NCBI GenBank assembly: GCA_017650365.1
Contig: JAGCEZ010000052.1
Coordinates: forward strand, 1-14,915
Source: Fibrobacterales bacterium
GTDB lineage: Bacteria > Fibrobacterota > Fibrobacteria > Fibrobacterales > CADBQJ01
Direction of reading: 5' to 3'
DNA: 14,915 bases
A program made the position numbers and the translations under genes. Position 1 is the first letter of the stretch; each line of letters begins with the position of its first letter. The notes under the pieces were generated by a model, which worked only from the letters and a program-made list of their open reading frames with translations, was not told the origin of the DNA and did no database searches. This document shows positions 1-14,915 of the stretch, piece by piece.

Positions 1-375
1 CGCCAGGGGCGAGACCACGACGTCCTCGCCGCCGTTCAGCGACGGGATGGTCATGAAGTAGCGGTACTGCGAGAAGGAGCGGTGGTTCTCCTTCGCCAGG
101 ATGTCGGAGAGCTTCTCGTTCAGACGGCGGAGCGAGATCTCGCCGCGCTGGCGCAGCGACAGCGACGCCTCGTTGCGGATCTGGGTGACGGTCTTGGAGA
201 CGAGGTCGACCGCGGCGACGGCGGTCAGCGCGAAGATGGCGGCGAAATAGACGCCGAGCGCCCGGGGATTGGTGGGCTGGAGGAACTTCAGCGCCTGCTT
301 GCCCGCCGCGGCCGCCCGTTCGGCGCCTTCGCGCGCGAGGGCCGCCGCGTGGAGCGCGAGGCGTCGGGAGCTCAT
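1..375 (-). CDS. Putative sensor histidine kinase, N-terminal portion; gene runs off the window at position 1
   Basis: I translated the reverse complement of 375..1 myself and found 125 codons with no stop. The product begins MSSRRLALHAAALAREG and contains a TM helix (LGVYFAAIFALTAVAAVDLV) followed by an extracytoplasmic segment. GC3 is strongly biased, as in the real genes here. The ATG at 375-373 overlaps the TGA of the upstream response regulator (ATGA), the classic response-regulator/kinase operon arrangement. The kinase core lies outside the window, so the assignment is inferential. Confidence 0.5.
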   Translation of the reverse strand, partial: MSSRRLALHAAALAREGAERAAAAGKQALKFLQPTNPRALGVYFAAIFALTAVAAVDLVSKTVTQIRNEASLSLRQRGEISLRRLNEKLSDILAKENHRSFSQYRYFMTIPSLNGGEDVVVSPLA

Positions 376-1109
376 TCCTCTTCGTCGGGATTGGGACGGA
401 GCATGTAGCCCTCGCCCCGCTGCGTGAGCAGGTAGACCGGCGCGCCGGGCACCTTCTCGATCTTCTTGCGGATCTTGGTCACGTGGATGTCGACGGTGCG
501 GGTGTCGATGGACTCGGCGTTGTCGTAGCCCCAGACGTCGCGGAGCAGTTCCTGGCGCGAGACCGTCTGCTTGCGGTGCGCGTTCAGGTACTGCAGGATC
601 TCGATCTCCTTGCGCGTGAAGGGGATTTCGCGCCCGTCGGCCGTCACGCCGGCGTATTCGCGGAAGTGGATCGTCAGGTCGCCGAGCTTGAGGTCGTTCT
701 CCTGGTCGATGCTGCGGCGGCTGCGGCGCAGCACCGCCTCGATGCGCGCGAAGAGCTGCGGGACGGAGAAGGGCTTGGAGATGTAGTCGTCGGCGCCGAG
801 GGCCAGGCCGTCGATGATGTCCTGGTCGGAGTTGCGGGCCGAGAGCATGATGATCGGCAGCTCGCGGTTCCGTTCGCGGATCCTGTTGCAGACCGTGAAC
901 CCGTCCATCTTCGGGAGCATGATGTCGAGGATGACCAGGTCGTAGTTGCCGGAGAGCGCCTCCTCGAGGCCCTTCTCACCGTCGGGCGCCCAGGTGGCTT
1001 TGAATCCGCGGTAGTCGCAGATGTCGACCAGACCTTCCGCGATGTTCTGCTCGTCTTCGACGATCAGGACGCGGTACTGTTCCTTTTCGGTGTTGGCTTG
1101 CGTTTCCAT
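372..1109 (-). CDS. OmpR/PhoB-family two-component response regulator (receiver domain plus winged-helix DNA-binding domain)
   Basis: 245 aa. Receiver-domain hallmarks are present: VLIVEDE, DLVILDIMLP (phospho-acceptor Asp), and LSARNSDQD...GADDYISKPF. C-terminal OmpR-type winged helix: LTRKEIEILQYL...TVSRQELLRDVWG...DTRTVDIHVTKIRKKIE. Confidence 0.9.
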   Translation of the reverse strand: METQANTEKEQYRVLIVEDEQNIAEGLVDICDYRGFKATWAPDGEKGLEEALSGNYDLVILDIMLPKMDGFTVCNRIRERNRELPIIMLSARNSDQDIIDGLALGADDYISKPFSVPQLFARIEAVLRRSRRSIDQENDLKLGDLTIHFREYAGVTADGREIPFTRKEIEILQYLNAHRKQTVSRQELLRDVWGYDNAESIDTRTVDIHVTKIRKKIEKVPGAPVYLLTQRGEGYMLRPNPDEEE

Positions 1110-1154
1110 GGCAAGAAAGATAGACTCAATTCTCCGGGCCGGGGGCGGCCGGAA

Positions 1155-1182
1155 ACGAAAAAAGGCCTCCGGAGAGGCCTTT
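1155..1182 (-). terminator. Rho-independent terminator for the 1205..1957 gene
   Basis: Hairpin AGGCCTC-CGGA-GAGGCCT at 1163-1180. On the minus strand it is followed by TTTTTCGTTT. It lies 25 nt downstream of the minus-strand stop at 1205. Confidence 0.55.
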
Positions 1183-1204
1183 CGGAAAGGGGGGGAGGAG
1201 GCGC

Positions 1205-1957
1205 CTAGATGCCGAGGCCGCCGCCCAGTTCCAGGGTGAAGCCGTTGTCCACGCCCTTGGGCAGGCCGCCGAAGTGGTACTTGCCGTTGGCGTAGACGCT
1301 GAAGAAGAGGAGCTTGGCGCGGACGCCGACCAGCGCGTGGCCGCCGAAGCCCGATTCGTTGTCGCCGTAGGCCTTCTCCAGGGCCTTCTGCATGGCCTTG
1401 GCCTGGGCCTTTTCGTCGGCGCCCGGAGCCGCGGCGGCGCCGTAGACGGCGTCGACCATGGCCTCGGCCATCTTCTTGTCCATGGGCTTGGTCGCGTAGA
1501 TCATCGAGGGGCCGCCGCCGACGTAGGCTTGCAGCCCGATCACGGCCAGCGAGAGGTCGAGGGCGCGCCAGGCGAGGGAGAGGTCGACCGACATCATCCC
1601 GAAGAGCGGCTCGGCGTCGCCCAGGAGCGGGAAGCCCAGGTCGGCCTTCATCGGCAGCTCCTTGCCGGTCGGGGTCGTGACGGTGGCGCCGTAGGTGCCG
1701 CCCTGGAAGTTGGCGGTCGCCTCGACGTTGAGGGGGATGAAGGGGACGTCGAGCCAGAGCTTGAGGCCGAAGCCGTTGTCGATGGAGGCCTCTTCGCGGG
1801 CGAACGTGAATTCCTGGCCGGCCATCGTGAAGTTCTGCGTCTTGCCGCCCACCGAGGCGCCGAAGTTCGGTGCCCAGTGGCCGCCGACGCCGACGAGGGC
1901 GAACGAGGGGGCCGCGGCGAAGGCCGCGACGAGGGCGATCAGAGAGAGTTTGCGCAT
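1205..1957 (-). CDS. Secreted, outer-membrane-like protein of unknown function
   Basis: 250 aa ORF with Sec-type signal peptide MRKLSLIALVAAFAAAPSFA. Good Shine-Dalgarno (AGGAGAA) 7 nt upstream of the ATG. Gly-rich, alternating beta-strand-like segments, with an Ala/Lys-rich helical insert in the middle. Has its own terminator. Confidence 0.75.
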   Translation of the reverse strand: MRKLSLIALVAAFAAAPSFALVGVGGHWAPNFGASVGGKTQNFTMAGQEFTFAREEASIDNGFGLKLWLDVPFIPLNVEATANFQGGTYGATVTTPTGKELPMKADLGFPLLGDAEPLFGMMSVDLSLAWRALDLSLAVIGLQAYVGGGPSMIYATKPMDKKMAEAMVDAVYGAAAAPGADEKAQAKAMQKALEKAYGDNESGFGGHALVGVRAKLLFFSVYANGKYHFGGLPKGVDNGFTLELGGGLGI

Positions 1958-2071
1958 GGAGTTCTCCTTTTTCCTAATCCGCTGTCTTCGAATTTAACTT
2001 AAAAGAGGCGGAAGCGAACCGGGAAAATCGCCCGCGGAGCCTCTTCGGAACCCCTTTCTAGCTTTGCCCGC

Positions 2072-3634
2072 ATGGAAAAGAAAGAGAACGCGGCCTCCCC
2101 GTCCCCGAACAAGTTCCTCTCCGGCCCGCGGCTCGGGCTGCTGCTCCTGCTGGTCTGGTCCGCCGCCCTCGCGATCTGGGGGTTCGACCCCAAGGTGGAC
2201 CTCAACGGCGACAACGTCGCCTACCTCTCCCTCTCCCGCGGGATCCTGTCGGGAGAGGGGTTCTGCCAGACGAGCGACCCGGCCTGCCCGCCCGAGAAGC
2301 ACTTCCCGCCGGGCTATCCGCTCCTGCTCGCGGCCGCGTCGCTGGTCTCGGGCGACCTCCTCTTCCTGAAGGCCCTCAACGGCGCGCTTCTGGTCGCGTG
2401 CGCGTTCCTGCTCCGCGCTCTCTGCCTGCGGCTCGGCCTGCCTCCGCTCCTTTCGCTCGCCGCGGCCTTCGCCGTTCCGGCCAACGCCCATCTTCTGCGC
2501 TCGTCGACGATCCTGATGTCGGAGATCCCGTTCCTCTTCTGGTCGCTCCTGCTGCTCTGGCTGGCCGCGGCGCCCGCGTCCGGACGCCCGTTCTGGAAGA
2601 CCCCGCGCTTCTGGGGCGCGGCCGTCGTCTCGGCGGCCGCGGTCTACACGCGCACGGCCGGCGTCGCGCTGCCCTTCGGCGTCGTCCTCGCGCTCCTCGC
2701 GGCGAAGCGGAGGAAGGAGGCCGCCGCCTTCGCGCTGGCGAACGCCGCGCTCCTCCTCCCCTGGCAGATCCGCAACGCCGGCCTGGCGGGCGAGTCCTAC
2801 GCGTCGCAGCTCCTGGCGGTCAACCCCTACCGGCCCGAGCTGGGCCAGGCCGGCGCCGCCGAGCTGGCCGCGCGGTTCGGGCGCAACGTCGCGCGCTACC
2901 TGGGCGAGGAGATCCCCTCCGCGCTGGCGCCCGCGTTCCATCCCGACGGACCGGGCGCCGGCGGCTGGATCCTCGGGATCCTCCTCGTCGCGCTCGCCGG
3001 ACGGGGTCTCTGGAAGCTGCCGAAGGGCCGCGCTCTCCTGGGCGGCGTCCTGCTCGGGAGCTTCGGCGTGATGTTCCTCTGGCCCGAGGTCTGGGGCGGC
3101 GTCCGCTTCATGCTCGGCACGGTCCCCCTCCTGACGGTCCTCGCGCTCTGGGGCGCGCAGGACCTCGTCTCCAAAAAGGCGAAGCTCCCGCCCGCGTGGG
3201 CCTTCGCGGTCCCCGTCCTCCTGCTCTTCGGCCTGGGCGGCGTCCGGACCATGGCCCGGGCGGACTACCCGGCGCCGTGGCAGCGCTACAAGGCGCTCGC
3301 GGAGTGGTGCTCGCGGAACACGCCCGACACGGCGCTGGTCGTGGCGCGCAAGCCGACGCTCTTCTGGCTCTGGAGCTCCCGGCGCTCGGTCAACTACAAG
3401 CTGACGACGGACGCGGACGCGCTGATCGCGGACCTGGACTCCGTCGGCGCGGACTACGTCGTGGTGGAGCAGCTCGGCTACGCCTCGACGGCGCGCAACC
3501 TGGTTCCCGCGATGCAGGCGAACCCCGGGCGCTTCGCCCCGGTGGTCGCCGCGCAGAACCCCTTTACGGCTCTCTACCGGTTCCTTCCGGAGCCGCCTCC
3601 GGCCCGATCTCCGGAATCTCCTTCCGCAGAATGA
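2072..3634 (+). CDS. GT-C fold glycosyltransferase, PMT_2/ArnT-like (GT39/GT83-type polyprenyl-phosphate-sugar dependent), multi-pass membrane protein
   Basis: 520 aa with about 10 or more hydrophobic helices. The first extracytoplasmic loop carries the ArnT/PMT signature pattern D-x-x-Y-x-x-x-S-R-x-x-L-x-x-G-x-F (GDNVAYLSLSRGILSGEGF). It ends with a soluble C-terminal domain, as in ArnT and PMT. Confidence 0.65.
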   Translation: MEKKENAASPSPNKFLSGPRLGLLLLLVWSAALAIWGFDPKVDLNGDNVAYLSLSRGILSGEGFCQTSDPACPPEKHFPPGYPLLLAAASLVSGDLLFLKALNGALLVACAFLLRALCLRLGLPPLLSLAAAFAVPANAHLLRSSTILMSEIPFLFWSLLLLWLAAAPASGRPFWKTPRFWGAAVVSAAAVYTRTAGVALPFGVVLALLAAKRRKEAAAFALANAALLLPWQIRNAGLAGESYASQLLAVNPYRPELGQAGAAELAARFGRNVARYLGEEIPSALAPAFHPDGPGAGGWILGILLVALAGRGLWKLPKGRALLGGVLLGSFGVMFLWPEVWGGVRFMLGTVPLLTVLALWGAQDLVSKKAKLPPAWAFAVPVLLLFGLGGVRTMARADYPAPWQRYKALAEWCSRNTPDTALVVARKPTLFWLWSSRRSVNYKLTTDADALIADLDSVGADYVVVEQLGYASTARNLVPAMQANPGRFAPVVAAQNPFTALYRFLPEPPPARSPESPSAE

Positions 3635-6183
3635 CCTGGGCGGCCGCCGGCACGAAGACCAGCGCGGTCAGGAGCGTGCAGGAGATGGCGACCACGGCCA
3701 GTTCGCCGATGGTCCGCATGCCGTGGTGCCCGATGAAGAGCACGCCCACGAACCCGCCGACCGTCGTGAGCGACGAGGCGACCACCATCTGCCCGACGGT
3801 GTCGTAGAGCCGGCGGACGTTCCGCAGGCCGAGGCGCTCCATGCCCGAGAGCAGGTGGATGGAGGAGTCGATCCCCACGCCGAGCGCCAGCGGGATGACG
3901 ATGATGTTGTAGACGCTGAAGCGGCCCAGGTCCATCGTCAGCGAGAGGATCCCCATGACGCCGACCGTCCAGAGCGAGCCCAGCACGAGCGAGCCGAAGG
4001 CCAGCAGCGCCTTGCGCCGCGAGTCGAGCGAGAAGAGCAGCGTCAGCAGCAGGACGGCCGCCATCAGCAGGGCCAGCTTGGCGCTGTCCTGGCGCACCGC
4101 CCGCACCACGTCGGAGAAGGTGAAGCTCGAGGAGAACGAGCGCAGCTGCCGCCCGCCGAAGGTCCAGTTCCCGTAGCGGTCCTGGAACTTCTCCGCGGCC
4201 AGCGCGTTCCAGCTCTCGAACTTGCCGTAGATGAAGCCGATCTTCCCGTAGCTGCCGTCGCGCTCCTTCAGCAGGTTGAGCGCCCATTCCGGCAGGTCCT
4301 CGGGCGTGAACGCCTCCACCTTCGACATCTCGCGCAGCTTGTCGACCAGCTCCCGCTCCTCGCCCTCGGCGCGGTCGAACGCGCGGGCGTCGATCAGCTC
4401 GGCGATCTCCTCGATCACCTCGAGCCGCTCCTCCTGCTCCTCCGCCGGCGGGACGAAGGTCTTCAGCGTGAGGAAGCTCTTCAGCACGGGGTCCTTGTCC
4501 ACGTGCAGGCGGACCATCAGCGTGTCGTAGAGCGCGTCGAGCTCCTCGCGCGTGTCGCCCAGCACCACGACGGGCTGCGACGAGGTGCGCTTGCCCCCCT
4601 GCGCGACGCCGGTGTGGAAGTTCGGGCCCGCGTCCGCGGAGGCGGGGCGGGCGGCGCGCAGCTTGCGGAAGTCGTTCTCGAACCCGCACCAGGGCGCGAA
4701 GCAGGCGAGGACGACGGTCGCCGCGGCGGCGGCCGCGGTCGCCCTCTTCAGGAACTTCGCGACGTCGGCGTCCGTCCAGCGCTTCGGGAAGACGGAGAAC
4801 GGGTGCGCGGCGGGCAGGCGGCCGATGCACAGCACGAGCAGCGGCAGCACCGTGAACGCCGAGACGTAGCTGATGAAGACGCCGACCGAGGCGATGGCGC
4901 CGAATTCGTAGAAGCCGCGGAACTTCGCCGCGAGCAGCGTCAGCATGCCGGCGACCGTGGTCAGGCAGGCGAGCGACATCGGCTTGAAGAGGTCCAGGAC
5001 CGTCCTGACGAGCGCCTCCTCGACGGAGTTCCCCTCGGCCCGGAGCCTTTGCGCGGTGCCGAGGAAGTGGATGGAGTAGTCGATCCCCATGCCCAGGATG
5101 ATCGCCGCGACGAAGAGCGTGAAGGGGTTGAGCTCGCCGTAGGAGACCGCGGTGAAGCCGAGCATGAGCGTCGCGGCGTTGGCGACGTTGAACATCGCCA
5201 GGAGGGCGGCCCAGCCGCGGAAGAAGACGATCATCATCCCCAGCAGGAGGACCGTGCTGATGACCGTGGAGACGAGCCCGTCCTGCTGCATCGCCTCGAC
5301 GTCCTCGAGGCCTTCGTAGGAGCCGGCCACGCCGAAGTGGACGGTCGTCCCCCAGTCGCGGGAGCGGAAGCGCTCCAGCAGCGAGTCGGTGCGCGCGAGG
5401 ACCAGCTTGGTGAAGTCGAGGTCGGTGGCCGATCCGGTCAGCTTGCAGAGCACGACGCCGTTGATCGTCCTGTCCTCCTCGTGCTGGCCGATCAGGCGGG
5501 CCTTGAGGTGCGAAGGCAGGCAGGCCTTGGGGTCCCACGCGACCGCGGCCGTGTCCTTCTTCCCGGCCTTGGCGGAGTCCTTCCGGACCAGCTTCGTGAA
5601 GCTGTCGAAGGCGTCGGCCGCCTCGTCGGGGAGACCCAGCTCCTGCGGGATGTCGGAGTCGAACCAGACGAGCTCCTCTTCCTTTTCGCCTTCCCCGGTC
5701 AGGTCCACGGTCAGGGGGCCCTTCGCCCCCATGCGGCGCTGGAGCGTCGCGAGGTTGTCGCGCACGCGCTCCAGGTGGCGGACGGGGAGGTAGAGCAGGG
5801 CGTGTTCCGCGAAGAAGTCCGTCGGCTGGTCGATCTGCGCGGAGACGAGGATGTCCTTCCACTCGGCGTCGAGGACGCGCTTGAGCGAGTCCTGCAGGTC
5901 GGCCACGAGGAGGGCGCTGTCGGACTGGATCACCAGCATGAACTTGTCGCTGGCGCCGAACCGCCTGTTGACCTCCTGGAGGGCGAGCACGCTCGGGGTG
6001 TCCTTCGGGAGGAGGGAGGAGAGGTCGCTGTTGATCCGGATCTTCGTCGCGGCGAGCCAGCCCGAAAGGGCGAGCAGGGCGAGGGTCAGGGCGAGGAAAG
6101 GCCAGCGGAATCGGCGCAGGCGGCCGATCAGCGCGCGGGCGAAGCGCTCGGTCTTGGTTCCGTTCATCTTCGTTTTTTCCATT
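3564..6183 (-). CDS. MMPL/RND-superfamily transporter (two-repeat 12-TM exporter, HpnN/MmpL-like)
   Basis: About 873 aa from the ATG at 6183 (MEKTKMNG...). Two repeats, each with a large soluble domain followed by a 5-6 TM bundle (GLVSTVISTVLLLGMMIVFF... and ...LLMAAVLLLTLLFSLDSRRKALLAFGSLVLGSLWTVGVMG...GVGIDSSIHLL). The six-frame ORF extends to 6407, but that stretch overlaps the divergent gene's start and looks non-coding. An alternative start is the ATG at 6168. Confidence 0.85.
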
Positions 6184-6249
6184 GGAATGCCAACTGAGGC
6201 AAAATAGAAAAAAGGGTCCTTTCGGCCCTCATTGTCTATTTTGTGGGGG

Positions 6250-7314
6250 ATGAACACGCTTTCCGGCATCCGTCTCCCCGGCGCGGGCCTCCTCGCGGCG
6301 CTCGCGTTCCTCGCGCTCTCCGCGCACGCGGCCCCGATCGTCGCCCCCGCGGGCGCCCCGCACGCGCCCGGCCCCGCGGAGATGGGCAGCCACCCCATCG
6401 ACAGCAAGACCTACAACGAGGTCTGGACCTGGCAGGCCCGCCTGAACGGCTCGATGGACCTCCTGGTCAACTTCACGCGCGGGAACTTCGGCTCGTTCAA
6501 GGACCCGGTCTGCGGCGCGAACGTCCTGCTCGTCGGGTTCGGCGGAAAGACGCATTCCGTCGCGCGCGAATACCCCAAGTCGAACTTCTCCTGGGACCCG
6601 GGCGCCGCGCGGATCCAGGTCCACAAGCAGATCTGGGCCGAGGGGCTCCCCCCGCAGAGGCACCACCTCCGCTTCGCCACGACGAAGAAGGGCGTGGAGT
6701 GGCTGGTCGACCTCGAGTTCACGCAGATCGCCCCTTCGCTCGTGCGCGGGAACGGCGTCTGGAAGCTGGGCGGGCACGCGTTCGGGCAGGTGATCCACGT
6801 CCCGTGGGCGAAGGTCTCCGGGACGATCGCCGTGGGCGGCGACACGGTCGCCGTGAACGGCACGGCGACGATGGACCACACCTGGCAGGACGACATGGCG
6901 CCCGAGATCGTCTCGCGCACCATTCGCTGGCGGACCACGGGCGCCTCGGGCGCGTGGGAGACCGCGTTCCTCGTCCGGCCCGAGGACGGGAAGGGCGTCG
7001 CGGGCTACGCGCTGCGCAAGGGTCCCGCGGGGACCGAGATGCGCGTTCCGCAGTCGTGGGAGGCCGCGGAGTCGAAGAAGGTCGGCGGGATCAAGGAGTG
7101 GCCGACGGTCCTGCTCGTGGACTACGGGCCGGCCGGGCGCGACTCCGTTTCGTTCGGCGACGCCTGGGCGAAGACCTCGGTGCTCGACGAGTTCGAGGGG
7201 GTCACGCGCTGGGCGGTCAAGAAGTTCCTCGGCGGCGAGGTGGTGGACTACCGCGGGCCCGCGAAGATCAACGGCAGGCCGGGCGCCTACGTGAACGCCT
7301 TCGTGAAGGACTGA
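6250..7314 (+). CDS. Secreted protein of unknown function, possibly lipocalin-like (AttH/CrtC-type); first gene of the nfo-exbBD operon
   Basis: ATG at 6250 gives [29 protein letters not shown], a clear signal peptide. 354 aa, rich in beta-like segments. The stop at 7312-7314 is 1 nt before the nfo ATG. The functional guess rests only on size and secreted character (low confidence). Confidence 0.8.
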
Positions 7315-7315
7315 G

Positions 7316-8164
7316 ATGAAGACGATCGGCGCCCACGTCTCCGCCTCCGGCGGCCTTTGGCAGGCGCCGCTCAACGCCGCCGCGATCGGCGCGACCGCGT
7401 TCGCGCTCTTCACCAAGAACCAGCGCCAGTGGACGGCGCCCCCGCTCTCCGCAGCGGAGATCGACCGCTTCCGGAAGACGTGCGAGGAGAAGGGCTACGG
7501 CCCCGCGCAAATCCTGCCGCACGACTCCTACCTCATCAACCTGGGCAACCCCGACGCGGACAAGCGGGCCGTCTCGCTCGGCTCGATGGTCCACGAACTG
7601 CGGCGGTGCGAGGCGCTCGGGCTGGACCGGCTGAACTTCCACCCCGGCAGCCACCTGCGCGAGATTTCCGAAGAGGAGTGCCTCGGGCTCATCGCGGACG
7701 GGATGAACCGCGCGCTCGAACAGACGAAGGGCGTGACGCTGGTGATCGAAAACACCGCTGGCCAGGGGAGCAACCTCGGGTACCGTTTCGAGCACCTCGC
7801 GCGGCTGATCGAGCTGGTCGAGGACAAGAGCCGCGCGGGCGTCTGCATCGACACCGCGCACACGTTCGCCTCGGGCCACGACCTGCGCACGGCGGAAGCC
7901 GTCCGCGCGACGCTGGACGAGTTCGACCGCGTCGTCGGGCTGAAGTGGCTGCGCGGCATGCACCTGAACGACTCCAAGGCGGCCCTCGGCTCGCGCGTCG
8001 ACCGGCACCAGAGCATCGGCAGGGGGCTGATCGGCGAGGAGTGCTTCCGGACGCTGATGAAGGACCCGCGCCTGGACGGGATTCCGCTGATCCTGGAAAC
8101 CATCGACCCGGAGCTCTGGCCGAGCGAGATCGCGTCGCTGAAGGCCTGGGCCGGAGAGGAGTGA
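7316..8164 (+). CDS. nfo: Endonuclease IV (AP endonuclease, Nfo)
   Basis: 282 aa. N-terminus [13 protein letters not shown] is canonical. Conserved metal-binding segments [29 protein letters not shown] and HLNDSK are present. Confidence 0.93.
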
Positions 8165-8171
8165 AAAGACC

Positions 8172-8711
8172 ATGCGCCTGATCGAATTCGTCGCGCTCGG
8201 CGGCACCATCGGCTGGATCCTGGTGATGATGAACGTCTTCGGCTTCGGGCTGATGATCCGGAAGTGGCTGGAGATCCGGCGCTTCCAGCGCGTCGTCCGC
8301 CCGGGGCTGGCGAAGCAGATCGAGGAGCGCCTGCAGAAGGCCGGCGTGCGCGGGACCGTGCTGCTGGAGGCGGCGCGGACCGAGGTGGCGCAGTCGTGCG
8401 CGCCGCTGGAGCGCGGGATGTCGGCGCTGCAGACCATCGCGACCATCGCGCCGCTGACGGGGCTGCTCGGCACCGTGGTCGGGATCTTCAACGCGTTCCA
8501 GATCGTCTCTGAGCGCGGCCTCGACGACCCGGCGCTCTTCGCGGGCGGCATCAAGCTCGCGCTGGTCACCACGGTGATCGGCCTGGTGGTCGCCATTCCG
8601 CACGTCGTGGCCTACAACGCCTTCGCCACGGCGATCGACGCCGAGCAGAACGCGCTCGAGAACGAGCTGCTCCTCGACCTCGGCGAGCAGGAGCGGCCGA
8701 AGGGGGCCTAG
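8172..8711 (+). CDS. exbB: MotA/TolQ/ExbB-family proton channel protein (ExbB-like, short form)
   Basis: 179 aa with three TM helices. Conserved C-terminal TM region IKLALVTTVIGLVVAIPHVVAYNAF is typical of ExbB/TolQ. It starts 8 nt after nfo. Confidence 0.85.
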   Translation: MRLIEFVALGGTIGWILVMMNVFGFGLMIRKWLEIRRFQRVVRPGLAKQIEERLQKAGVRGTVLLEAARTEVAQSCAPLERGMSALQTIATIAPLTGLLGTVVGIFNAFQIVSERGLDDPALFAGGIKLALVTTVIGLVVAIPHVVAYNAFATAIDAEQNALENELLLDLGEQERPKGA

Positions 8712-8714
8712 TCC

Positions 8715-9113
8715 GTGCCGAGACGCCGCCGTCCGCTCCTGAAGCTCGACATGACGCCGCTCATCGACGTCGTCTTCCTGCTGCTGATCTTCTTCCTGGT
8801 CACCTCGATCTTCCGCAAGGACCAGACCACGCTGAACCTGCAGCTCCCGCCCGTGGGCGCGGCGGCGACCGAAGTCCCCGTGCGCCCGCTCCAGGTCGAG
8901 CTCTCCGAGACGCGGCTCGCCTTCGGCGGCGAGGTCCTCTCGTTCGAGGAGTTCGACCGGACGCTCGGCGGCGCGCCCGACCGCGAAGTCCCGGTTTCGG
9001 TGAAGATCGACGAGAACGTCCGCTACGAGCGCATCGCCAGGATGCTCGAGATCCTGCAGCGCCACGGGTTCCGGAAGCTGGACCTGGTGCAGCGCGTCAA
9101 GGAGCCCCGGTAG
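8715..9113 (+). CDS. exbD: ExbD/TolR-family biopolymer transport protein
   Basis: 132 aa from a GTG start, with AAGGGGG Shine-Dalgarno upstream. N-terminal RRRR followed by the TM helix LDMTPLIDVVFLLLIFFLV, which contains the conserved protonatable Asp. Periplasmic domain as in ExbD/TolR. It starts 3 nt after the exbB stop. Confidence 0.85.
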   Translation: MPRRRRPLLKLDMTPLIDVVFLLLIFFLVTSIFRKDQTTLNLQLPPVGAAATEVPVRPLQVELSETRLAFGGEVLSFEEFDRTLGGAPDREVPVSVKIDENVRYERIARMLEILQRHGFRKLDLVQRVKEPR

Positions 9114-9134
9114 GGCTTTCCTTCCCGACTTCCC

Positions 9135-9150
9135 CCAGCGCCGCGAGCAC
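9135..9150. repeat. Left copy of a 16-bp imperfect direct repeat CCAG(C/G)GCCGCGAGCAC, a candidate att or duplicated yhcC 3' end
   Basis: CCAGCGCCGCGAGCAC at 9135-9150 matches CCAGGGCCGCGAGCAC at 11380-11395 at 15 of 16 positions. The pair brackets the low-GC island. On the minus strand the left copy encodes ...VLAALGEVGK, which resembles the yhcC C-terminus ...VLAALEETGRF. Confidence 0.4.
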
Positions 9151-9161
9151 AAGGCGGCCTG

Positions 9162-9350
9162 TCAAGAGCTGCACGCCCGGATAAGCCCTATGATGGCAAT
9201 GCACAGGACAAGGCAGCCCAGCGCGCTTTCCTTGGCGCTTTCCTTGGCCACTTGTTTTTCGGTTTTGGAGTCGCAGTATGGGCATTGCGCCGCATCGACT
9301 GGGACGGGCGCGCCGCAATGAGAGCAGGTGCTCGTTTTTTCTCCCGACAT
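9162..9350 (-). CDS. Small zinc-ribbon membrane protein (62 aa): N-terminal C-x2-C-x10-C-x2-C ribbon plus a C-terminal TM anchor
   Basis: ATG at 9350 gives MSGEKTSTCSHCGAPVPVDAAQCPYCDSKTEKQVAKESAKESALGCLVLCIAIIGLIRACSS. Codon usage is low-GC, as in the neighbouring island genes. It is transcribed divergently from the SPFH gene. The six-frame ORF extends to 9542, but only the part from the MSGEK ATG looks coding. Confidence 0.55.
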   Translation of the reverse strand: MSGEKTSTCSHCGAPVPVDAAQCPYCDSKTEKQVAKESAKESALGCLVLCIAIIGLIRACSS

Positions 9351-9379
9351 CGTCTTTCTCTTGAAAAAGTTCGTCGCTC

Positions 9380-9415
9380 TTGACGGATGTAAAAAAAACG
9401 CACATATTGTGCAAG
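9380..9415 (+). promoter_or_regulatory. Putative sigma70-type promoter (TTGACG-17-CATATT) with an overlapping GCACA-N3-TGTGC inverted repeat; drives the SPFH gene
   Basis: An AT-rich 97-bp divergent intergenic region. TTGACG is followed after 17 nt by CATATT, about 40 nt upstream of the ATG at 9448. The palindrome GCACATATTGTGC overlaps the -10 element. Confidence 0.35.
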
Positions 9416-9447
9416 GGGAATTTTCAAAAAACACCGGAGCGCGCGAA

Positions 9448-10653
9448 ATGGCCATTTTGGACGTCGTCAAGTTCGAATCGTCAGCCGACATATTGGCCTG
9501 GAAATTTCCCAAAAGCAAACTGACCACGAAAACGACGCTCATCGTGGCCGAATCGCAGGAAGCGATCTTTTTCAGGAACGGTCAGGCGCTGGACACGTTC
9601 GGTCCCGGCCGGTATCAGCTGACCACCGACAACCTTCCCCTTCTCCAGGGACTGGTCAACCTGCCCACGGGCGGCAAGGCGCCGTTTTCCGCGGAGGTGT
9701 GGTTCGTCAACAAGGCCTACAGCCTCAACATCCTGTGGGGCACGAGCACTCCCATCCAGCTGCAGGACCCCAAGTACGGCGTCTTTGTTCCGGTTCGCGC
9801 CTTCGGCCAGTTCGGCGTTCGGGTGGACGACGTCAAGAAGTTTCTGATCAAGCTGGTGGGAACGCTTCGTTTGTTCGACACCAAGACGCTGACCGGCTAC
9901 TTCAAAGGCTTCTACCTGACCCATGCGAAGACGATGATCTCGAAGTGCCTGGTGGAGCAGAAAATCCCGGTGCTCGAGATCAACGCCAACCTGCTCGCCC
10001 TTTCGGAGTCGCTCAAGTCGCAATTGCAGGGGGTCTTCGACGAATACGGCATCACGCTTGCGTCGTTCATGTTGAACTCCATCTCGGTGCCCGACGACGA
10101 TCCCGGCGTTCAGAGACTCAAGGCCGCGTTGGCCAAGAAGGCCGAGATGAGCGTCCTGGGATACGACTACCGCACCGAACGCAGCTTCGACACGATGGAA
10201 CAAGCGGCCTCGAACAAGGGGGTCGGAGCCGGACTGATGGACGCCGGGGTGGGGCTGGGCATGGGGCTCGGACTCGGAGGGCCCTTGGGCAAACTGATGG
10301 GCCAGGTGGCGTCGCAGCTGCAAACGCAGCCGCCGGCTTCCGCGTCGTCATCGGAAGCGACGATTACCTGCGACAAGTGCGGCGCCTCGTATCCGAAGGG
10401 AAGCAGGTTCTGCCCCAACTGCGGAGACGCGTTCAATCCCTGCCCCAAGTGCGGCGCCGACATGCCCGAGGGGAAACCCTGTCCCAAATGCGGCTTCGTG
10501 CCGAAAAAATGCCCCAATTGCGGGGCAACGCTTGCAGATGGCGTCAAGTTCTGTCCGGAATGCGGATCCGCCACTGTCAAGAAGTGTTCCGCCTGCGGAA
10601 CGGAATTGGCTCCCGGAGCCAAGTTCTGTCCTGAATGCGGCGCCAAAGCCTAA
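9448..10653 (+). CDS. SPFH/Band-7 family protein (Band_7_1, COG4260-type) with four tandem C-terminal zinc ribbons
   Basis: 401 aa. The N-terminus MAILDVVKFESSADILAWKFP...LIVAESQEAIFFRNGQALDTFGPGRYQLTTDNLPLL matches the conserved start of the PF13421/YdjI-like SPFH family. Then a Gly/Met-rich linker. The C-terminus carries 8 CxxCG motifs, which form 4 C-x2-C-x9-11-C-x2-C ribbons. Codon usage is low-GC and differs from the flanking genes. Confidence 0.85.
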   Translation: MAILDVVKFESSADILAWKFPKSKLTTKTTLIVAESQEAIFFRNGQALDTFGPGRYQLTTDNLPLLQGLVNLPTGGKAPFSAEVWFVNKAYSLNILWGTSTPIQLQDPKYGVFVPVRAFGQFGVRVDDVKKFLIKLVGTLRLFDTKTLTGYFKGFYLTHAKTMISKCLVEQKIPVLEINANLLALSESLKSQLQGVFDEYGITLASFMLNSISVPDDDPGVQRLKAALAKKAEMSVLGYDYRTERSFDTMEQAASNKGVGAGLMDAGVGLGMGLGLGGPLGKLMGQVASQLQTQPPASASSSEATITCDKCGASYPKGSRFCPNCGDAFNPCPKCGADMPEGKPCPKCGFVPKKCPNCGATLADGVKFCPECGSATVKKCSACGTELAPGAKFCPECGAKA

Positions 10654-10679
10654 GCTCATGCAACCATAGAGAGGAAGAA

Positions 10680-11354
10680 ATGTCATCCAAAGTCGTCACT
10701 CTGATTTGCGGGTGGGCCTTTGCTGCTCTTGTGGTCGCGGTAATGCTTCTGCTTGGCCATGACCAGACCGGCGGAAACATTCCCGTCGTTTACAAGACCG
10801 CATGCGCCTGCGTTTCCTTGGCAATCCTCGTGGGAACCCACTTGGCCGCGTTCTCGGGAGGGCATCCCAAACGCATAGCGACGGTGGTTCTCTGGGTCGC
10901 GCTATTGCTCTTTACGGCGGTTTACTCCACGTTCACGATGATGTCCGACGAACCCCGCCTGGTCGCCTACATCGCGGTCAATCTATTGACTTTTGGCGCC
11001 GTTTCCGTTTTGAGCTTCGTTCTTTGGAGTTCCGCTACACGCGGCGATGCAAGCCAGCGAGCCTGTTTCGAGACCAAACGGGCGATGCTCCGAAGCCGCA
11101 TCGTGGCAGACGCCATGTGTCATGGCGCCGCCGGCGTCAAGTACGCCGAACAGCTTCGGACTCTTGCCGAAAACCTTCGCTTCCAGGACGATTCGGCGAC
11201 TGTCGAACAAGACGAACAGATTTTGGATCGCCTAAACGACTTGTCGGAGCACCTTGCCGAAGAAGGTTATCCTGTCCAGGAACGCATCGACGAGATAGAC
11301 GACCTCGTCAAACAGCGCAACTTCGCGGTGAAGTCGCTGAAAAGCCTTCATTAG
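10680..11354 (+). CDS. Integral membrane protein (4 TM) with a C-terminal cytoplasmic acidic/coiled-coil domain; unknown function
   Basis: 224 aa. GAGGAAG Shine-Dalgarno 5 nt upstream of the ATG at 10680. Four hydrophobic helices within residues 5-116, then a charged helical tail (…EQDEQILDRLNDLSEHLAEEGYPVQERIDEIDDLVKQ…). Low-GC codon usage, as in the SPFH gene 26 nt upstream. Confidence 0.7.
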   Translation: MSSKVVTLICGWAFAALVVAVMLLLGHDQTGGNIPVVYKTACACVSLAILVGTHLAAFSGGHPKRIATVVLWVALLLFTAVYSTFTMMSDEPRLVAYIAVNLLTFGAVSVLSFVLWSSATRGDASQRACFETKRAMLRSRIVADAMCHGAAGVKYAEQLRTLAENLRFQDDSATVEQDEQILDRLNDLSEHLAEEGYPVQERIDEIDDLVKQRNFAVKSLKSLH

Positions 11355-11358
11355 CCCG

Positions 11359-12276
11359 TCAAAACCGACCGGTCTCCTCCAGGGCCGCGAGCACGGCCCG
11401 GACGATGGCGTTCCGGTCGCCGCTCCACGCGGGCGCGAGGAGCATGTCCGACGGGGTCTCGCCCGAGACGCGCTCCACCGCGGTCGAGCGCGGGAGGATG
11501 GACGCGAACTCCGCGACCCCGCGCGCGTACTCCTCCAGGGTCGGGAGCGCGAACTCGCCTCGTTCCCACTCCTCCGCCAGCCGCGTCCCCTTCACGACGT
11601 GGAGCGGGTGGATCTTGACGCTCTCCACGGGGTGCGCGGCCAGAAAACGCGCCGTCGTTTTCCAGTCTTCGGGCGTCTCTCCGGGCAGTCCGAGGATGAC
11701 GTGCGCCGCGAGGGAGACGCGCGGGTTCTTCGCGGGAGTCCCGTCGCGGAAAAGAGCCCGGGCGTCCGCCCACTCCGCGGCGGTGTGGCCGCGCCCGATC
11801 CGCGCCAGCGTCCGGTCGTTCGCGCTCTGCAGCCCGAGCTCCAGGACGATTGGCTTGCGTTCCGCCAGCTCCTCGAGCAGGTCGCGCACGCCCTCGTCCA
11901 CGCAGTCCGGGCGCGTGCCGATCGCGAGGCCGTCCACGCGCTCGTCGGCGAGGATCGATTCGTAGACCGCGCGGAGCCTTTCGGGCGCGCCGTAGGTGTT
12001 GGACCAGGGCTGCAGGTAGGCGAGGACCCCTGCGTCGGGGCGTTTCGCCTTCAGGCGCGCGATCCCCTCGTCGAGCTGCTCGGCGACGCTCTTCCGCGTC
12101 CCCGCCACGGGCGAGAAGGAGCGGTTGTCGCAGTAGGAGCAGCCGCCCGTCCCGCGCGTCCCGTCGAGGTTCGGGCAGCGGAAGCCGGCGTCGAGGACGA
12201 CCTTCCGCGTCTCCTTCCTCCCGGGAAAGAGTTCGCGCAGGAAGGAGGCGTAGCTCTTGAACGGGAGTCCGCTCAT
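11359..12276 (-). CDS. yhcC: Radical SAM protein, TIGR01212 (YhcC) family
   Basis: 305 aa. Motif KVVLDAGFRCPNLDGTRGTGGCSYCDN, with Cys residues in YhcC-family arrangement. The start overlaps the manC stop (ATGA). Confidence 0.88.
   Translation of the reverse strand: MSGLPFKSYASFLRELFPGRKETRKVVLDAGFRCPNLDGTRGTGGCSYCDNRSFSPVAGTRKSVAEQLDEGIARLKAKRPDAGVLAYLQPWSNTYGAPERLRAVYESILADERVDGLAIGTRPDCVDEGVRDLLEELAERKPIVLELGLQSANDRTLARIGRGHTAAEWADARALFRDGTPAKNPRVSLAAHVILGLPGETPEDWKTTARFLAAHPVESVKIHPLHVVKGTRLAEEWERGEFALPTLEEYARGVAEFASILPRSTAVERVSGETPSDMLLAPAWSGDRNAIVRAVLAALEETGRF
11380..11395. repeat. Right copy of the 16-bp imperfect direct repeat (inside the yhcC 3' end)
   Basis: CCAGGGCCGCGAGCAC lies inside the last codons of yhcC (…VLAALEE…). 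See the left copy at 9135-9150. Confidence 0.4.
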
Positions 12277-13658
12277 CCGCGCCTGTAGTCGTCGTCGAAG
12301 CGCTCGATGTCGTCTTCGCCGACGTAGCTCCCCACCTGGACCTCCACGATCTCGAGCCGCTCGGTCCCGGGGTTCTCCAGCCGGTGCATGCGGCCCGCGG
12401 GGATGTAGGTGGATTCGTTGGGGCGGATGGTCAGCACGTCGTCGCCGTTGGTCACCTTGGCCACGCCGGAGAGGACGACCCAGTGCTCGCTGCGGAAACG
12501 GTGCTTCTGCAGCGAGAGGCGGGCGCCCGGCTTGACGGCGATGCGCTTGATCTTGTAGCCCTCGCCCTCGCGGAGCACGGTGTACTTGCCCCAGGGGCGC
12601 GAGGCGGTCGTGTGCACGGAGGCCAGCTCGGAGCCGCTCGCCTGCAGGATCTCGACGATCGACTTCACCTGCTGCGACTTGCCGCGCGGGGCGACCAGCA
12701 GCGCGTCGGAGGTGTCCACCACGATCGAGTCGTGCAGGTCCACCGTCGCCACCACGCGGTCGCGCGCCAGGATCAGGTTGCCCGTCGATCCCACGGAGAT
12801 GTGCTTGTCGGAGAGGGTGTTGCCGGCGTCGTCGCGCGGAAGCTCGGCGTAGAGGCTCTCGAACGAGCCGAGGTCGTTCCAGCCGAAGTCGGAGGGGACG
12901 ACCTTCACGCAGTCGCTCTTCTCCATCACCGCGTAGTCGATCGACTTGGAGGGGATGGCGAGCATCGCCTGCATCGGAATCCGGACGAACCGCCCTTCCG
13001 CCTTCGACTCCTTCAGCGCGGCCTCGCAGGCCCCGAGGATCGCGGGCTCGCGCTTCTCCAGCTCGCGCAGCAGCGTTCCGGCCTTGAAGCAGAACATCCC
13101 GGAGTTCCAGAGGAAGTCGCCGCTCTCCAGGTAGAGCTTCGCCGTCTCCAGGTCGGGCTTCTCCACGAACCGGACGACGTCCTCGCCCTTCGCCTGGATG
13201 TAGCCGTATCCGGTCTCGGGCGCCGCGGGCTTGATCCCGAAGGTGACGAGGAAGCCGAGCCGGGCGAGCCGCTCCGCCTCGCGCAGGGACTCTTCGTACT
13301 TCGCCTTGTCGCGGACGAGGTGGTCGCTGGGCGTGGCCAGGACGACTTCCTCCGGGTCGAGCGCCAGGCAGGCGAGCGCGAGCGCGGGCGCGGTGTTCCG
13401 TCCGGTCGGCTCCAGGACGAAGCGCGACTCCGGCGCGCCGGGGACGCGGTCCGCGAGCTCGTCCAGCTGGTCCGCCGCGAGGAAGTACTGTTCGGCGTTC
13501 GAGACGACCAGCCGCTCCGGGCAGAGGGAGTTGCGGAGGACGGTCTCCTGGAAGAGCGAGCGCTCGCCGAGGAGGTGGACGAACTGCTTGGGCATCAGCT
13601 GGCGGGAAAGAGGCCAGAGCCTCGTTCCGGAGCCGCCGCAGAGAATGACGTTGATCAT
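12273..13658 (-). CDS. manC: Mannose-1-phosphate guanylyltransferase / mannose-6-phosphate isomerase (bifunctional, cupin C-terminus)
   Basis: 461 aa from the ATG at 13658 (AGGAAA Shine-Dalgarno). MINVILCGGSGTRLWPLSR nucleotidyltransferase motif. C-terminal cupin domain (EHWVVLSGVAKVTNGDDVLTIRPNESTYIPAGRMHRLENPG). The six-frame ORF extends upstream to 14015, but that part overlaps the Alg13-like gene and is Arg-rich shadow sequence. Confidence 0.92.
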   Translation of the reverse strand: MINVILCGGSGTRLWPLSRQLMPKQFVHLLGERSLFQETVLRNSLCPERLVVSNAEQYFLAADQLDELADRVPGAPESRFVLEPTGRNTAPALALACLALDPEEVVLATPSDHLVRDKAKYEESLREAERLARLGFLVTFGIKPAAPETGYGYIQAKGEDVVRFVEKPDLETAKLYLESGDFLWNSGMFCFKAGTLLRELEKREPAILGACEAALKESKAEGRFVRIPMQAMLAIPSKSIDYAVMEKSDCVKVVPSDFGWNDLGSFESLYAELPRDDAGNTLSDKHISVGSTGNLILARDRVVATVDLHDSIVVDTSDALLVAPRGKSQQVKSIVEILQASGSELASVHTTASRPWGKYTVLREGEGYKIKRIAVKPGARLSLQKHRFRSEHWVVLSGVAKVTNGDDVLTIRPNESTYIPAGRMHRLENPGTERLEIVEVQVGSYVGEDDIERFDDDYRRG

Positions 13659-14185
13659 GGTTCGTTTCCTTGCGCTTCGCCGGCGAAGAACCGGCGCAGC
13701 ATGGTGAAAACCGGCTTGTCCTCCCGGCGGAGGGCGTCGACGCGGAGCTCCGCCGGGTCGAGGGAGAGGATCCGCGCGCACATCTCCTCGGGCGAAACCT
13801 CGTCGAGCAGCGCGACGGCGAGCCCGCGTCCGGCGAGCTTGCGCGCGATCTGCAGCTGGTGGTCGTCCACGTGTTCCCCGAACTCCGCGCGCCGCGGAAC
13901 GACGACGGGCCTGCGCCCCTGCCGCAGCGACGACATCAGGATCCCCACGCCGGCGTGCGCGACGACCACGGGCGTCTCGCGCAGGCGGCGCGCCATCTCG
14001 TCGAACGGAAGCCACCGGACCGCGGTCAGGTTCTCCGCCGGCTTCGGGGAGGCCATGCCGTATTGGTAGAGCACGCGCCGGCCGCTTCGCGCGAGCAGCG
14101 CCGCCAGCTCGTCCATCCGCGCGAAGGGGGCGTCGAACGTCCCGAGCGTCGCGAACACGTCGAACTCAGAAGACGCTTCCGCCAT
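13655..14185 (-). CDS. Alg13-like glycosyltransferase subunit (Glyco_tran_28_C; PssE/Cps14G/EpsF-type)
   Basis: 176 aa. Small GT28 C-terminal-domain protein. The stop overlaps the manC start (ATGA). It follows the Alg14-like gene directly, the conserved Alg14/Alg13 pairing. Confidence 0.72.
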   Translation of the reverse strand: MAEASSEFDVFATLGTFDAPFARMDELAALLARSGRRVLYQYGMASPKPAENLTAVRWLPFDEMARRLRETPVVVAHAGVGILMSSLRQGRRPVVVPRRAEFGEHVDDHQLQIARKLAGRGLAVALLDEVSPEEMCARILSLDPAELRVDALRREDKPVFTMLRRFFAGEAQGNEP

Positions 14186-14669
14186 AGACTCCCTTGGGGT
14201 AGAACGGAGCGAGCTCCTCCCACTGGTAGAGGAAGAGATCCGCGAACCGCGCGCAGACCCGCCCCGTGGGCGACGGCCCGTCGACGCGCGCCAGCGTCTC
14301 GACGAAGCAGGTCCGCGTCCCGGGCATCAGCTTCGCGAGCAGGAAATAGGGGACGGCGATCGAGCTCCCCGTGCTGACGATCCGGTCGGGCCGGTATTTC
14401 AGCAGGAGGAGGGGCGCCTGGAGGAAGTCCCAGGCCACGGCGCCGAGCCGCGCGAGGTTCTTCGCGAACCCCAGCCGGGAGGAGACCCGCGCCACGCAGT
14501 CCTTCGCCCAGTGGACGGTCTTCCCCTCCAGCAGCACGACGGCGTCGTTCTTCTTCGGGACGACCCAGTGGATTTCGAGCCCCTCCGCGCAGGGTTCGGC
14601 CTGGAGGAGCTCCATGAGGTGCCCCCCCGCCGCGCAGACGAAAAAGGCGCGTCTTCTCTTCCCGTTCAT
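14166..14669 (-). CDS. Alg14-like oligosaccharide biosynthesis protein (PssD/Cps14F/EpsE-type membrane-anchoring subunit)
   Basis: About 167 aa from the ATG at 14669; the six-frame ORF starts at a TTG at 14675. G-x-GGH motif (VCAAGGHLMELL) typical of Alg14. It overlaps the Alg13-like start by 20 nt. Confidence 0.72.
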   Translation of the reverse strand: MNGKRRRAFFVCAAGGHLMELLQAEPCAEGLEIHWVVPKKNDAVVLLEGKTVHWAKDCVARVSSRLGFAKNLARLGAVAWDFLQAPLLLLKYRPDRIVSTGSSIAVPYFLLAKLMPGTRTCFVETLARVDGPSPTGRVCARFADLFLYQWEELAPFYPKGVYGGSVF

Positions 14670-14915
14670 CGTCAAGAAACTAGAAACTATGAATTAGCGG
14701 CCAAATCCCCCTAAACGACCCGAAACCGGCGATTCCGGAGAAAAATTTTCCATTCCCCCTTGCCAGGGGCCGGGGAAAAGCCTATGTTTGCGCTCACCCC
14801 CGAAAAAGGGGCGTCCGCCGCCGAGCGGACGAGCGCTTGAAAATCCGAGGACATATGCTTGTGCAGAGGCCTGCGTCGTTCGAGAGAACAAGACGCAAGT
14901 CTGTCTAGCGAACGA

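Follow-up and report, generated by a model that had tools for sequence, protein, structure and literature searches.

Introduction

SPFH domains self-assemble into membrane rings or cages that enclose or organise partner proteins. SPFH proteins are universal, whereas the anchor-less type with zinc ribbons, represented by YdjI/SamI, has roles known from one organism only. Here, we analyse a stretch of 14,915 nucleotides from Fibrobacterales bacterium (GTDB lineage Bacteria; Fibrobacterota; Fibrobacteria; Fibrobacterales; CADBQJ01), which corresponds to positions 1 to 14,915 of the forward strand of contig JAGCEZ010000052.1 in the NCBI GenBank assembly GCA_017650365.1 and is hereafter referred to as the window. 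It contains three genes, here called g1, g2 and g3, which are located between exbD and the 3' end of yhcC (mnmL), and of which g2 codes for an SPFH protein of the anchor-less type. The reading that we favour, and hold to be fairly probable, is that the region from about position 9151 to 11400 is an old, strain-variable island in a ruminant-gut host of high guanine-plus-cytosine (GC) content, and that this island carries one SPFH scaffold module.

The YdjI/SamI architecture consists of an SPFH domain of the Band_7_1 type without a membrane anchor, a low-complexity linker and a C-terminal zinc finger or zinc ribbon (PMC8581546; bioRxiv 10.64898/2026.02.06.704340). In Bacillus subtilis, YdjI/SamI gets to the membrane only via YdjG, which has zinc ribbons and a transmembrane (TM) segment, and YdjH (PMC8581546; PMC11237479; bioRxiv 10.64898/2026.02.06.704340). 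The YdjG protein contains two zinc ribbons, an NTF2-like domain and a TM helix (PMC11237479).

The closest described systems for the island as such are the integrative islands that insert at the 3' ends of genes with duplication of the att site. The region examined here resembles them in its foreign composition and in its presence/absence polymorphism between close relatives, as well as in being inserted within the 3' end of a conserved gene, for which a substitute end has been supplied and the original end left as a repeat. It differs from them in that the versions seen here contain no integrase, excisionase or transfer genes, and in that it is very small (2.2-4.1 kb), old, partly eroded and mosaic between lineages. 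Contigs and loci used for comparison are denoted by the letter L and a number.

Results and Discussion

The g2 protein has the architecture of YdjI/SamI

The g2 protein matched Band_7_1 (PF13421) over profile positions 2-198 of 211 with a score of 158.3 bits, where the cutoff is 24 (E = 2.7e-46). Eight CxxC pairs at residues 308-397 represent four zinc ribbons, and no hydrophobic or TM helix was identified in the protein. In the AlphaFold2 model, the SPFH core was predicted with local distance difference test (pLDDT) values of 70-88, along with small ribbon units, and the Gly-rich stretch at about residues 235-303 was disordered, with pLDDT values below 50 for the linker (residues 256-303). 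Sequence searches of the PDB with g2 gave nothing significant, and a Foldseek search of the PDB with the core identified stomatin (E = 1e-8), prohibitin, HflK/C, flotillin and QmcA at E-values of 1e-8 to 1e-5. The absence of a membrane anchor, the low-complexity linker and the C-terminal zinc ribbons are all features of the YdjI/SamI type.

The SPFH fold is common to g2 and to the HflK/C-FtsH, QmcA-YbbJ/NfeD, stomatin, flotillin and prohibitin systems. Furthermore, the gene order is reminiscent of classical SPFH operons, in which the scaffold gene is located beside the gene for the membrane protein that it encloses or organises. However, g2 differs from the classical SPFH proteins in that it contains neither a TM or hairpin anchor nor a long coiled coil or flotillin 'lid', and in that it has zinc ribbons and is placed on the cytoplasmic side. 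Neither g1 nor g3 matched NfeD or FtsH in Pfam or NCBIfam, which sets the locus apart from the SPFH-NfeD operons.

A closer parallel is the PspA-YdjGHI (SamGHI) system of B. subtilis, in which the central protein has the same architecture as g2 and is likewise encoded together with two membrane proteins, one of which bears one or more zinc ribbons. Judged by the published descriptions of YdjG, YdjH and YdjI, with which the comparison was made, g2 is unlike YdjI in having four zinc ribbons (five in most of its relatives), and the systems also differ in that no pspA gene is located beside g2, either here or in the sampled relatives. The locus contains no pspA gene, no TPM-domain partner and no partner of the YdjG type, and the only feature that g1 shares with YdjG is the general theme of a zinc-ribbon membrane protein.

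Putative membrane partners g3 and g1

The model of the g3 protein was of high confidence (AlphaFold2, pLDDT 91.9) and contained four TM helices, the last of which runs into a cytoplasmic bundle of three further helices. By our reading of the loop charges, both termini would be cytoplasmic. The protein belonged to no family in Pfam or NCBIfam, apart from a sub-threshold match to DUF7937, and a profile search of the PDB sequences gave nothing significant. No structure in the PDB matched the model at E <= 0.001 in Foldseek; the best hits were fusions of G protein-coupled receptors with BRIL, which simply share the succession of a TM bundle and a helix bundle. Word-index searches with g3, either as a single sequence or as a profile, gave almost only close kin, and we instead used phmmer and a home-built hidden Markov model (HMM). 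The exhaustive phmmer search identified relatives in 49 cluster representatives, nearly all of which were 215-239 amino acids long, with a few shorter fragments. We predict that g3 is a dedicated membrane partner of g2.

The g1 protein contains an N-terminal zinc ribbon (CxxC-x12-CxxC; Pfam DZR, E = 1.1e-6) of the same type as the zinc ribbons in g2, followed by a single C-terminal TM helix. Its counterparts in L001, L087, L097, L111, L113 and L186 are proteins of 130-150 amino acids in which a zinc ribbon is combined with a TM2 domain (ZnR-TM2), and an alignment with the ZnR-TM2 proteins of L001, L087, L097, L111 and L113 showed that the TM2 domain is missing from g1 in the window. The g1 sequence was identical in L003 and L004. 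Compared with the copy in L001, it was only 50% identical over 40 residues, while g2 and g3 showed 89-91% nucleotide identity. The g1 gene may be degenerate. In all, the gene content agreed with the first-pass annotation of the window, which had listed a zinc-ribbon TM protein, an SPFH protein with four zinc ribbons and a protein with four TM helices and a coiled-coil tail.

Linkage of g2, g3 and a zinc-ribbon membrane protein in other genomes

An SPFH profile retrieved 87 distinct loci from metagenome and viral contigs, and these were scanned with the HMM of the g3 family. Downstream sequence was sufficient in 73 of them, and in 64 of the 73 the gene right after the SPFH gene, in the same orientation, was a member of the g3 family. 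Another gene on the same strand followed g3 in 58 of 61 loci; it carried a zinc-ribbon motif in 50 of 55 cases and coded for a protein with 1-3 TM helices and a C-terminal zinc ribbon in 42 of the 55. These latter proteins, exemplified by L089 (7928-8437), L091 (8006-8656) and L093 (3944-4507), have a conserved middle region and a C-terminal CxxC..CxxC motif, and were assigned to no Pfam family.

The divergent arrangement, with a ZnR-TM2 gene upstream of the SPFH gene, was identified in 4 of 68 metagenome and viral loci, all 4 of which are in the clade of SPFH proteins nearest to the window, and additionally in L186 and L001. Wherever downstream sequence was available, the divergent loci contained no zinc-ribbon gene after g3, such that the two arrangements have complementary distributions. 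A zinc-ribbon membrane protein is therefore a near-constant third partner, supplied either downstream or divergently upstream.

The best g2 homologues outside the kin group were 55-58% identical and came, where named, from metagenome-assembled genomes (MAGs) of Clostridia, Firmicutes, Deltaproteobacteria and Adiutrix. The best g3 homologue outside the kin group, P0127, showed 31% identity and is encoded in L186, a contig of 40% GC, adjoining rpsF-ssb-rpsR. Its gene is located directly after an SPFH gene whose product is 55% identical to g2 and opposite a divergent ZnR-TM2 gene. The same order was observed in L087, a Clostridia MAG from ruminants with 46% GC, which contains a ZnR-TM2 gene on the minus strand followed by the genes for an SPFH protein with zinc ribbons and a g3 homologue on the plus strand. 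Since L186 and L087 carry the same triad, the three genes probably came together from a low-GC, Firmicutes-like lineage, and the GC content at third codon positions (GC3) of 0.67-0.80 in the window fits a partial amelioration.

The finding of the best g2 and g3 homologues on a single low-GC contig, with a divergent ZnR-TM2 gene, gives a positive answer to the question, raised in the first-pass annotation, of whether the genes travel together in other phyla. The wider claim of a horizontally acquired and functionally coherent module stands with regard to the foreign composition and the co-travelling genes, but requires modification in that only the g2-g3 pair is near-universal, and that the type of zinc-ribbon protein represented by g1 is confined to one subclade.

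The genes upstream of the SPFH gene were mixed and mostly ordinary housekeeping genes, but also included tyrosine integrases (4 of 51), a resolvase, a DDE transposase and a gene for an Ltp-type lipoprotein. Homologues of the operon were additionally found on six IMG/VR contigs, beside tail or recombinase genes, and on a few plasmids. These contexts fit a cassette that may occasionally be mobilised. It was also noted that one of the IMG/VR contigs, L092, contains two paralogous SPFH zinc-ribbon genes (6001-7326 and 8696-10000) in consecutive operons.

Such neighbours could also be expected if the module were anti-phage or superinfection-exclusion cargo that acts at the membrane, by abortive infection or exclusion, on mobile elements. 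In line with this explanation, the module is located on a strain-variable island, and in L089/L102 (689-12175) the operon has two reverse-transcriptase (RVT_1) genes and ThiF on one side, and VbhA/Fic and a resolvase gene on the other, a context that resembles a defence or mobile island. Furthermore, a distant homologue with 36% identity is encoded on a Butyrivibrio plasmid beside restriction-modification and toxin-antitoxin genes, although it represents a different subfamily and has no annotated gene directly after the SPFH gene. On the other hand, g1, g2 and g3 had no match in PADLOC (PADLOC-DB v2) at E <= 0.1, matches to PHROG families were restricted to the zinc-ribbon segments, and no nuclease, NTPase or other effector domain was identified in the proteins. 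Only 6 matches were obtained in 2.9 million viral contigs and 2 weak ones in 50,697 phage records, and the predominance of housekeeping genes upstream also argues against a role in defence, which we consider unlikely.

Foreign composition of the island

The GC content was 0.584 in the region 9114-11358, compared with 0.688 in the remainder of the window. When calculated in windows of 300 nucleotides, it was about 0.70 in the host sequence and 0.51-0.67 in the island, with a return to 0.65-0.67 at positions 10050-10500, where g2 codes for the linker and zinc ribbons that are rich in Gly, Ala and Cys. The drop in GC content noted in the first-pass annotation is thus real, but the value of 50-55% given there matches the minima only.

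The GC3 values were 0.67 for g1, 0.80 for g2 and 0.67 for g3, as compared with 0.93-0.98 for nfo, exbB, exbD and yhcC, whereas the GC content at second codon positions (GC2) of the island genes, 0.41-0.56, was inside the host range. The compositional signal is hence located at synonymous positions. The tetranucleotide distance from the island to the host was 0.492, against 0.184 +/- 0.025 for 33 host windows of equal size (z = 12.4). Counts in the island and in the host, respectively, were 20 and 2 for AAA, 11 and 1 for GTT, 4 and 0 for ATA, 6 and 0 for GAT, and 8 and 3 for TTT, in agreement with the earlier remark that AAA, TTT, GTT and ATA codons are common in the island and scarce outside.

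Empty, short and long versions of the site

The gene arrangement in L003 and L004 was the same as in the window, with 98% nucleotide identity. An empty site was identified in L005, a rumen MAG represented by a contig of 9.3 kb and 68.5% GC, in which the nfo, exbB, exbD, yhcC and manC genes were 82-84% identical to those in the window. In this contig, the exbD gene is followed by one small helix-turn-helix (HTH) gene and then by yhcC, without g1, g2 and g3. The empty site that had been predicted does therefore exist, with a single small host-like gene between exbD and yhcC.

The HTH gene codes for an XRE-type protein of 107 amino acids and was found at positions 3503-3826 in L005, where its stop codon overlaps that of yhcC, and at 266-589 in L001; the lineage of the window shows no trace of it (positions 9114-9161). 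It was considered as a regulator of the island and rejected, since its GC3, 0.95, is like that of the host and the empty site contains it as well. The exbB and exbD genes were rejected as members of the module for similar reasons, being of host composition and both present at the empty site.

A longer version of the island, 4.1 kb, was identified in L001, which is about 90% identical to the window. Reading from the left, L001 carries the HTH gene, an orphan fragment of yhcC and a hairpin, followed by a minus-strand ZnR-TM2 gene for a protein of 146 amino acids, by the SPFH gene and g3, and then by two lipoprotein genes and yhcC. The two lipoprotein genes (3212-4162 and 4265-4717) are paralogous and of low GC content, code for proteins of 316 and 150 amino acids with an LSGCSG lipobox, contain internal repeats of 432 nucleotides and are absent from the window. 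The protein of 316 amino acids had no match in Pfam.

In L177-L180, g3 abuts yhcC as in the window, yet the body of yhcC was 96-99% identical to that of L005, so that occupied as well as empty sites occur in the L005-like species. The co-occurrence of the two states in close relatives (L005 versus L177 and L180) is as expected for an integrative island. In L180 (192-722), the g3 gene is frameshifted after about residue 124, resulting in a product of 176 amino acids with an unrelated tail, which suggests decay of the module in one strain. None of g1, g2 and g3 was present within 10 kb of any of the 80 yhcC loci recovered from other species, the nearest of which, with 47-49% identity in yhcC, were Fibrobacterota MAGs. 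The locus is also a neat case, found in nature, of a very small island that lacks an integrase and occupies the 3' end of a tRNA-modification gene (yhcC/mnmL), with the empty, short and long states all found among co-resident rumen lineages.

Junctions within the 3' end of yhcC

All occupied sites had an island-type yhcC tail (..GDRNAIVRAVL[A/G]ALEETGRF and stop, in the translations of the window, L004, L177 and L180), while the yhcC gene at the empty site in L005 ends with ..GDRNAIVSAVLSELERLPAD and stop. The two types of tail meet at a core of 23 nucleotides, GACGATGGCGTTCCGGTCGCCGC, which showed no differences between the empty site, the occupied sites and the orphan copy in L001. The yhcC genes of L177 and L180 have an L005-like body in which only the last 13 codons or so are of the island type, which shows that tail and island move together. 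In L001, the left end of the island holds an orphan fragment of 60 nucleotides that encodes the L005-type tail (GDRNAIVAAVLSELERLPAD and stop) and ends at the core. The direct repeat in L001 is 47 nucleotides long and imperfect, with 79% identity, and includes the identical core. The island in L001 is thus flanked by direct repeats derived from the target, and retains an orphan L005-type tail, which are characteristics of integrative islands.

The left flank of L181 was 96.9% identical to the window up to position 9150, after which the sequences diverge. The direct repeat in the window was tried as stand-alone proof of integration and rejected, since 3 of the 2466 background windows from the host scored equally high; it carries weight only in combination with the junctions in L001, L181 and L177. 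A tail that is both duplicated and replaced is the scar to be expected from recombination, within the gene, of an element that carries a copy of the gene end. The insertion had been described as precise in the first-pass annotation, which is contradicted by the replacement of the last 13 codons or so of yhcC, with the old tail left as an orphan at the other end, and by the presence of two extra lipoprotein genes and a longer g1 in relatives. The tight junctions in the window may be due to later trimming.

Recombination between the flanking repeats could also delete the island, which would give exactly the state in L005. This would be the case if the region were native, with a composition shaped by amino-acid content or expression constraints, and the L005 site represented a lineage-specific deletion. 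Such an origin would also fit with the presence of the island in several lineages, with synonymous divergence close to that of the flanks, and with its host-like GC2 values. It does not sit well with the large GC3 gap at synonymous positions and the tetranucleotide z-score, nor with the finding that the nearest g2 and g3 homologues outside the kin group have an identical gene order and are located in Firmicutes-like contigs of low GC content, the lack of the genes at the yhcC loci of the 80 other species and the duplicated and replaced yhcC tail, which is an insertion scar, and we regard it as very unlikely. We hold it highly probable that the island is real, that it was horizontally acquired long ago, although not by a clean insertion, and that its edges have since been eroded.

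Coordinates of the features associated with the island are shown in Table 1.

Table 1. Positions in the window of the island genes, their parts, the candidate promoter and the junction sequences
Feature	Position	Strand	Description
Left boundary	9130-9151	read on minus strand	decayed orphan copy of the yhcC 3' end, ..LVLAALGE..; repeat partner of 11374-11395
g1	9162-9350	-	62 amino acids; zinc ribbon and one TM helix
Candidate g2-g3 promoter	9380-9408	+	sigma-70 type, TTGACG-17-CATATT; consensus match only; within 9351-9447
g2	9448-10653	+	401 amino acids; soluble SPFH protein of the YdjI/SamI type, Band_7_1 and four zinc ribbons
g2, Band_7_1	about 9499-10098	+	
g2, linker	about 10213-10356	+	Gly-rich, low complexity
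g2, zinc ribbons	10369-10650	+	four zinc ribbons
g3	10680-11354	+	224 amino acids; four TM helices and helical tail
g3, TM helices	10686-11033	+	four TM helices, residues 3-118
g3, helical bundle	11034-11351	+	cytoplasmic, residues 119-224
Replacement yhcC tail	11359-11400	-	island type, ..RAVLAALEETGRF and stop; contains the right direct repeat, 11374-11395
Core	11401-11423		23 nucleotides, GACGATGGCGTTCCGGTCGCCGC, inside yhcC; putative crossover (att-like) site

The g1 and g2 genes diverge from an AT-rich spacer of 97 nucleotides (9351-9447), and the island genes converge on the host genes at both ends. Of the short distances that had been reported for the two ends, the 48 nucleotides from the stop codon of exbD to that of g1 were correct, but the stop codons of g3 and yhcC are separated by 4 nucleotides rather than 5. 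The promoter block was conserved in L001, L182 and L004. A near-palindrome, CGCACATATTGTGCA, is located at 9397-9413, after a run of eight A, where it overlaps the -10 element of the candidate g2 promoter and could be an operator.

Age of the island and selection on g2 and g3

In the comparison of the window with L001, the number of synonymous substitutions per site (dS) was 0.26 for g2, 0.33 for g3 and 0.32 for yhcC. Since the dS values of g2 and g3 match that of yhcC, the island predates the split of the lineages. It is also present in at least 3 lineages, between which the nucleotide sequences of the flanks differ by 10-17%, and the previous description of the insertion as recent must consequently be abandoned.

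The ratios of nonsynonymous to synonymous substitutions (dN/dS) in the same comparison were 0.22 for g2, 0.20 for g3 and 0.28 for yhcC. For g3, the overall range was 0.13-0.20, and for the neighbouring housekeeping genes 0.24-0.33. The g2 and g3 genes are accordingly under purifying selection, with dN/dS values of 0.13-0.22. That the island has lost its function in this host and is now decaying, as could be suspected from the loss of the TM2 domain in g1, the lack in the window of the lipoprotein genes of its relatives, the frameshift in g3 of L180 and the complete absence of the island from some strains (L005), is highly improbable in view of these ratios, which do not exceed those of the housekeeping genes, the conserved promoter region and the intact g2 and g3 genes in the window, L001, L003, L004, L177 and L182.

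A model for the island and its module

According to our model, the island would have entered by recombination at the core of 23 nucleotides within the 3' end of yhcC (mnmL), bringing with it a substitute tail for the gene and leaving the original tail orphaned at the far end. The donor would have been a low-GC, Firmicutes-like gut anaerobe with an identical arrangement of the three genes. Later changes at the edges could then have resulted in a g1 protein without the TM2 domain and in the absence of the two lipoprotein genes from the window.

We further propose that g2 oligomerises at the cytoplasmic surface of the membrane to form a ring or cage, and that g3 serves as its dedicated membrane receptor or enclosed client, with the helix bundle of g3 docking to g2. 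The zinc-ribbon membrane protein of the g1 type would be an accessory anchor, perhaps by zinc-ribbon contacts across the flexible linker of g2. Such an assembly could mark off a patch of membrane in which envelope stress is sensed or buffered, without an adjacent PspA. For this scaffold mechanism we see about an even chance. The oligomerisation of g2, the pairwise contacts among the proteins and the physiological role are what we infer from folds, gene linkage and analogy with the described SPFH systems. By the same analogy, g2 may be recruited to the membrane by g3 and g1, and the function is likely to be that of a PspA-independent sub-membrane scaffold in membrane stress or homeostasis.

Several observations weigh against the combined reading of an old island and an SPFH scaffold module. 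With regard to the module, the g2 model as a whole was of low confidence (pLDDT 64), and g3, with its four TM helices and helix bundle, is unrelated to YdjH, which has a TPM domain. The g1 protein, a zinc ribbon with a TM helix (ZnR-TM2 in relatives), also lacks the NTF2-like domain of YdjG, for which 62 amino acids leave no room. Genes for PspA (PspA_IM30) were identified in 0 of 57 downstream neighbours and at most 1 of 51 upstream neighbours, and there are none in the island or the window. Moreover, some strains can do without parts of the module, since g1 is truncated here and g3 frameshifted in L180.

With regard to the island, no integrase or excisionase was identified in any version, including the island in the window and the 4.1-kb version in L001, and site-specific integration is therefore deduced from the junctions alone. 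The direct repeat in the window is short and, at 18 of 20 identical positions with 3 of 2466 background windows scoring as high, borderline on its own. The dS value for g3 between the window and L177 was 0.72, which exceeds the 0.32 for yhcC and indicates that the history has not been one of simple vertical descent. Finally, both L001 and L181 are mosaic. The left 650 nucleotides of L001 were 98.6% identical to L005 but the right flank just 82%, and in L181 (1-1090) a flank of the window type is joined to cargo of the L001 type across a gap of N over the starts of g1 and g2. The mosaics imply either exchange between co-resident lineages or chimeras of assembly or scaffolding, which L001 and L181 could be.

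Implications for SPFH scaffolds

The kind of SPFH protein and the kind of island described here are both already known, and what is new are the unannotated membrane partners and the lack of PspA. The finding by itself overturns nothing. The set of g2, g3 and a zinc-ribbon membrane protein nevertheless provides a defined minimal system in which to study how SPFH proteins are recruited to the membrane and what SPFH scaffolds enclose. That it makes a testable system follows from the linkage of g3 to the SPFH gene in 64 of 73 loci, the usual presence of a zinc-ribbon membrane protein and the absence of PspA. More tentatively, the set may represent an undescribed and widespread three-component scaffold of gut and sediment anaerobes, independent of PspA, which moves between phyla as a compact cassette and provides an envelope trait on which selection can act, for instance resistance to phages or to membrane stress; we consider this broader proposal possible but rather doubtful.

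Other genes in the window

Three further open reading frames in the window, at 1205-1957 (minus strand), 2072-3634 (plus strand) and 6232-7314 (plus strand), code for proteins of 250, 520 and 360 amino acids, respectively, for which no match was found in Pfam. They are of host composition, with GC3 values of 0.94-0.96, and adjoin the genes for an MMPL-family transporter (3564-6407, minus strand) and an OmpR-type response regulator (372-1109, minus strand).

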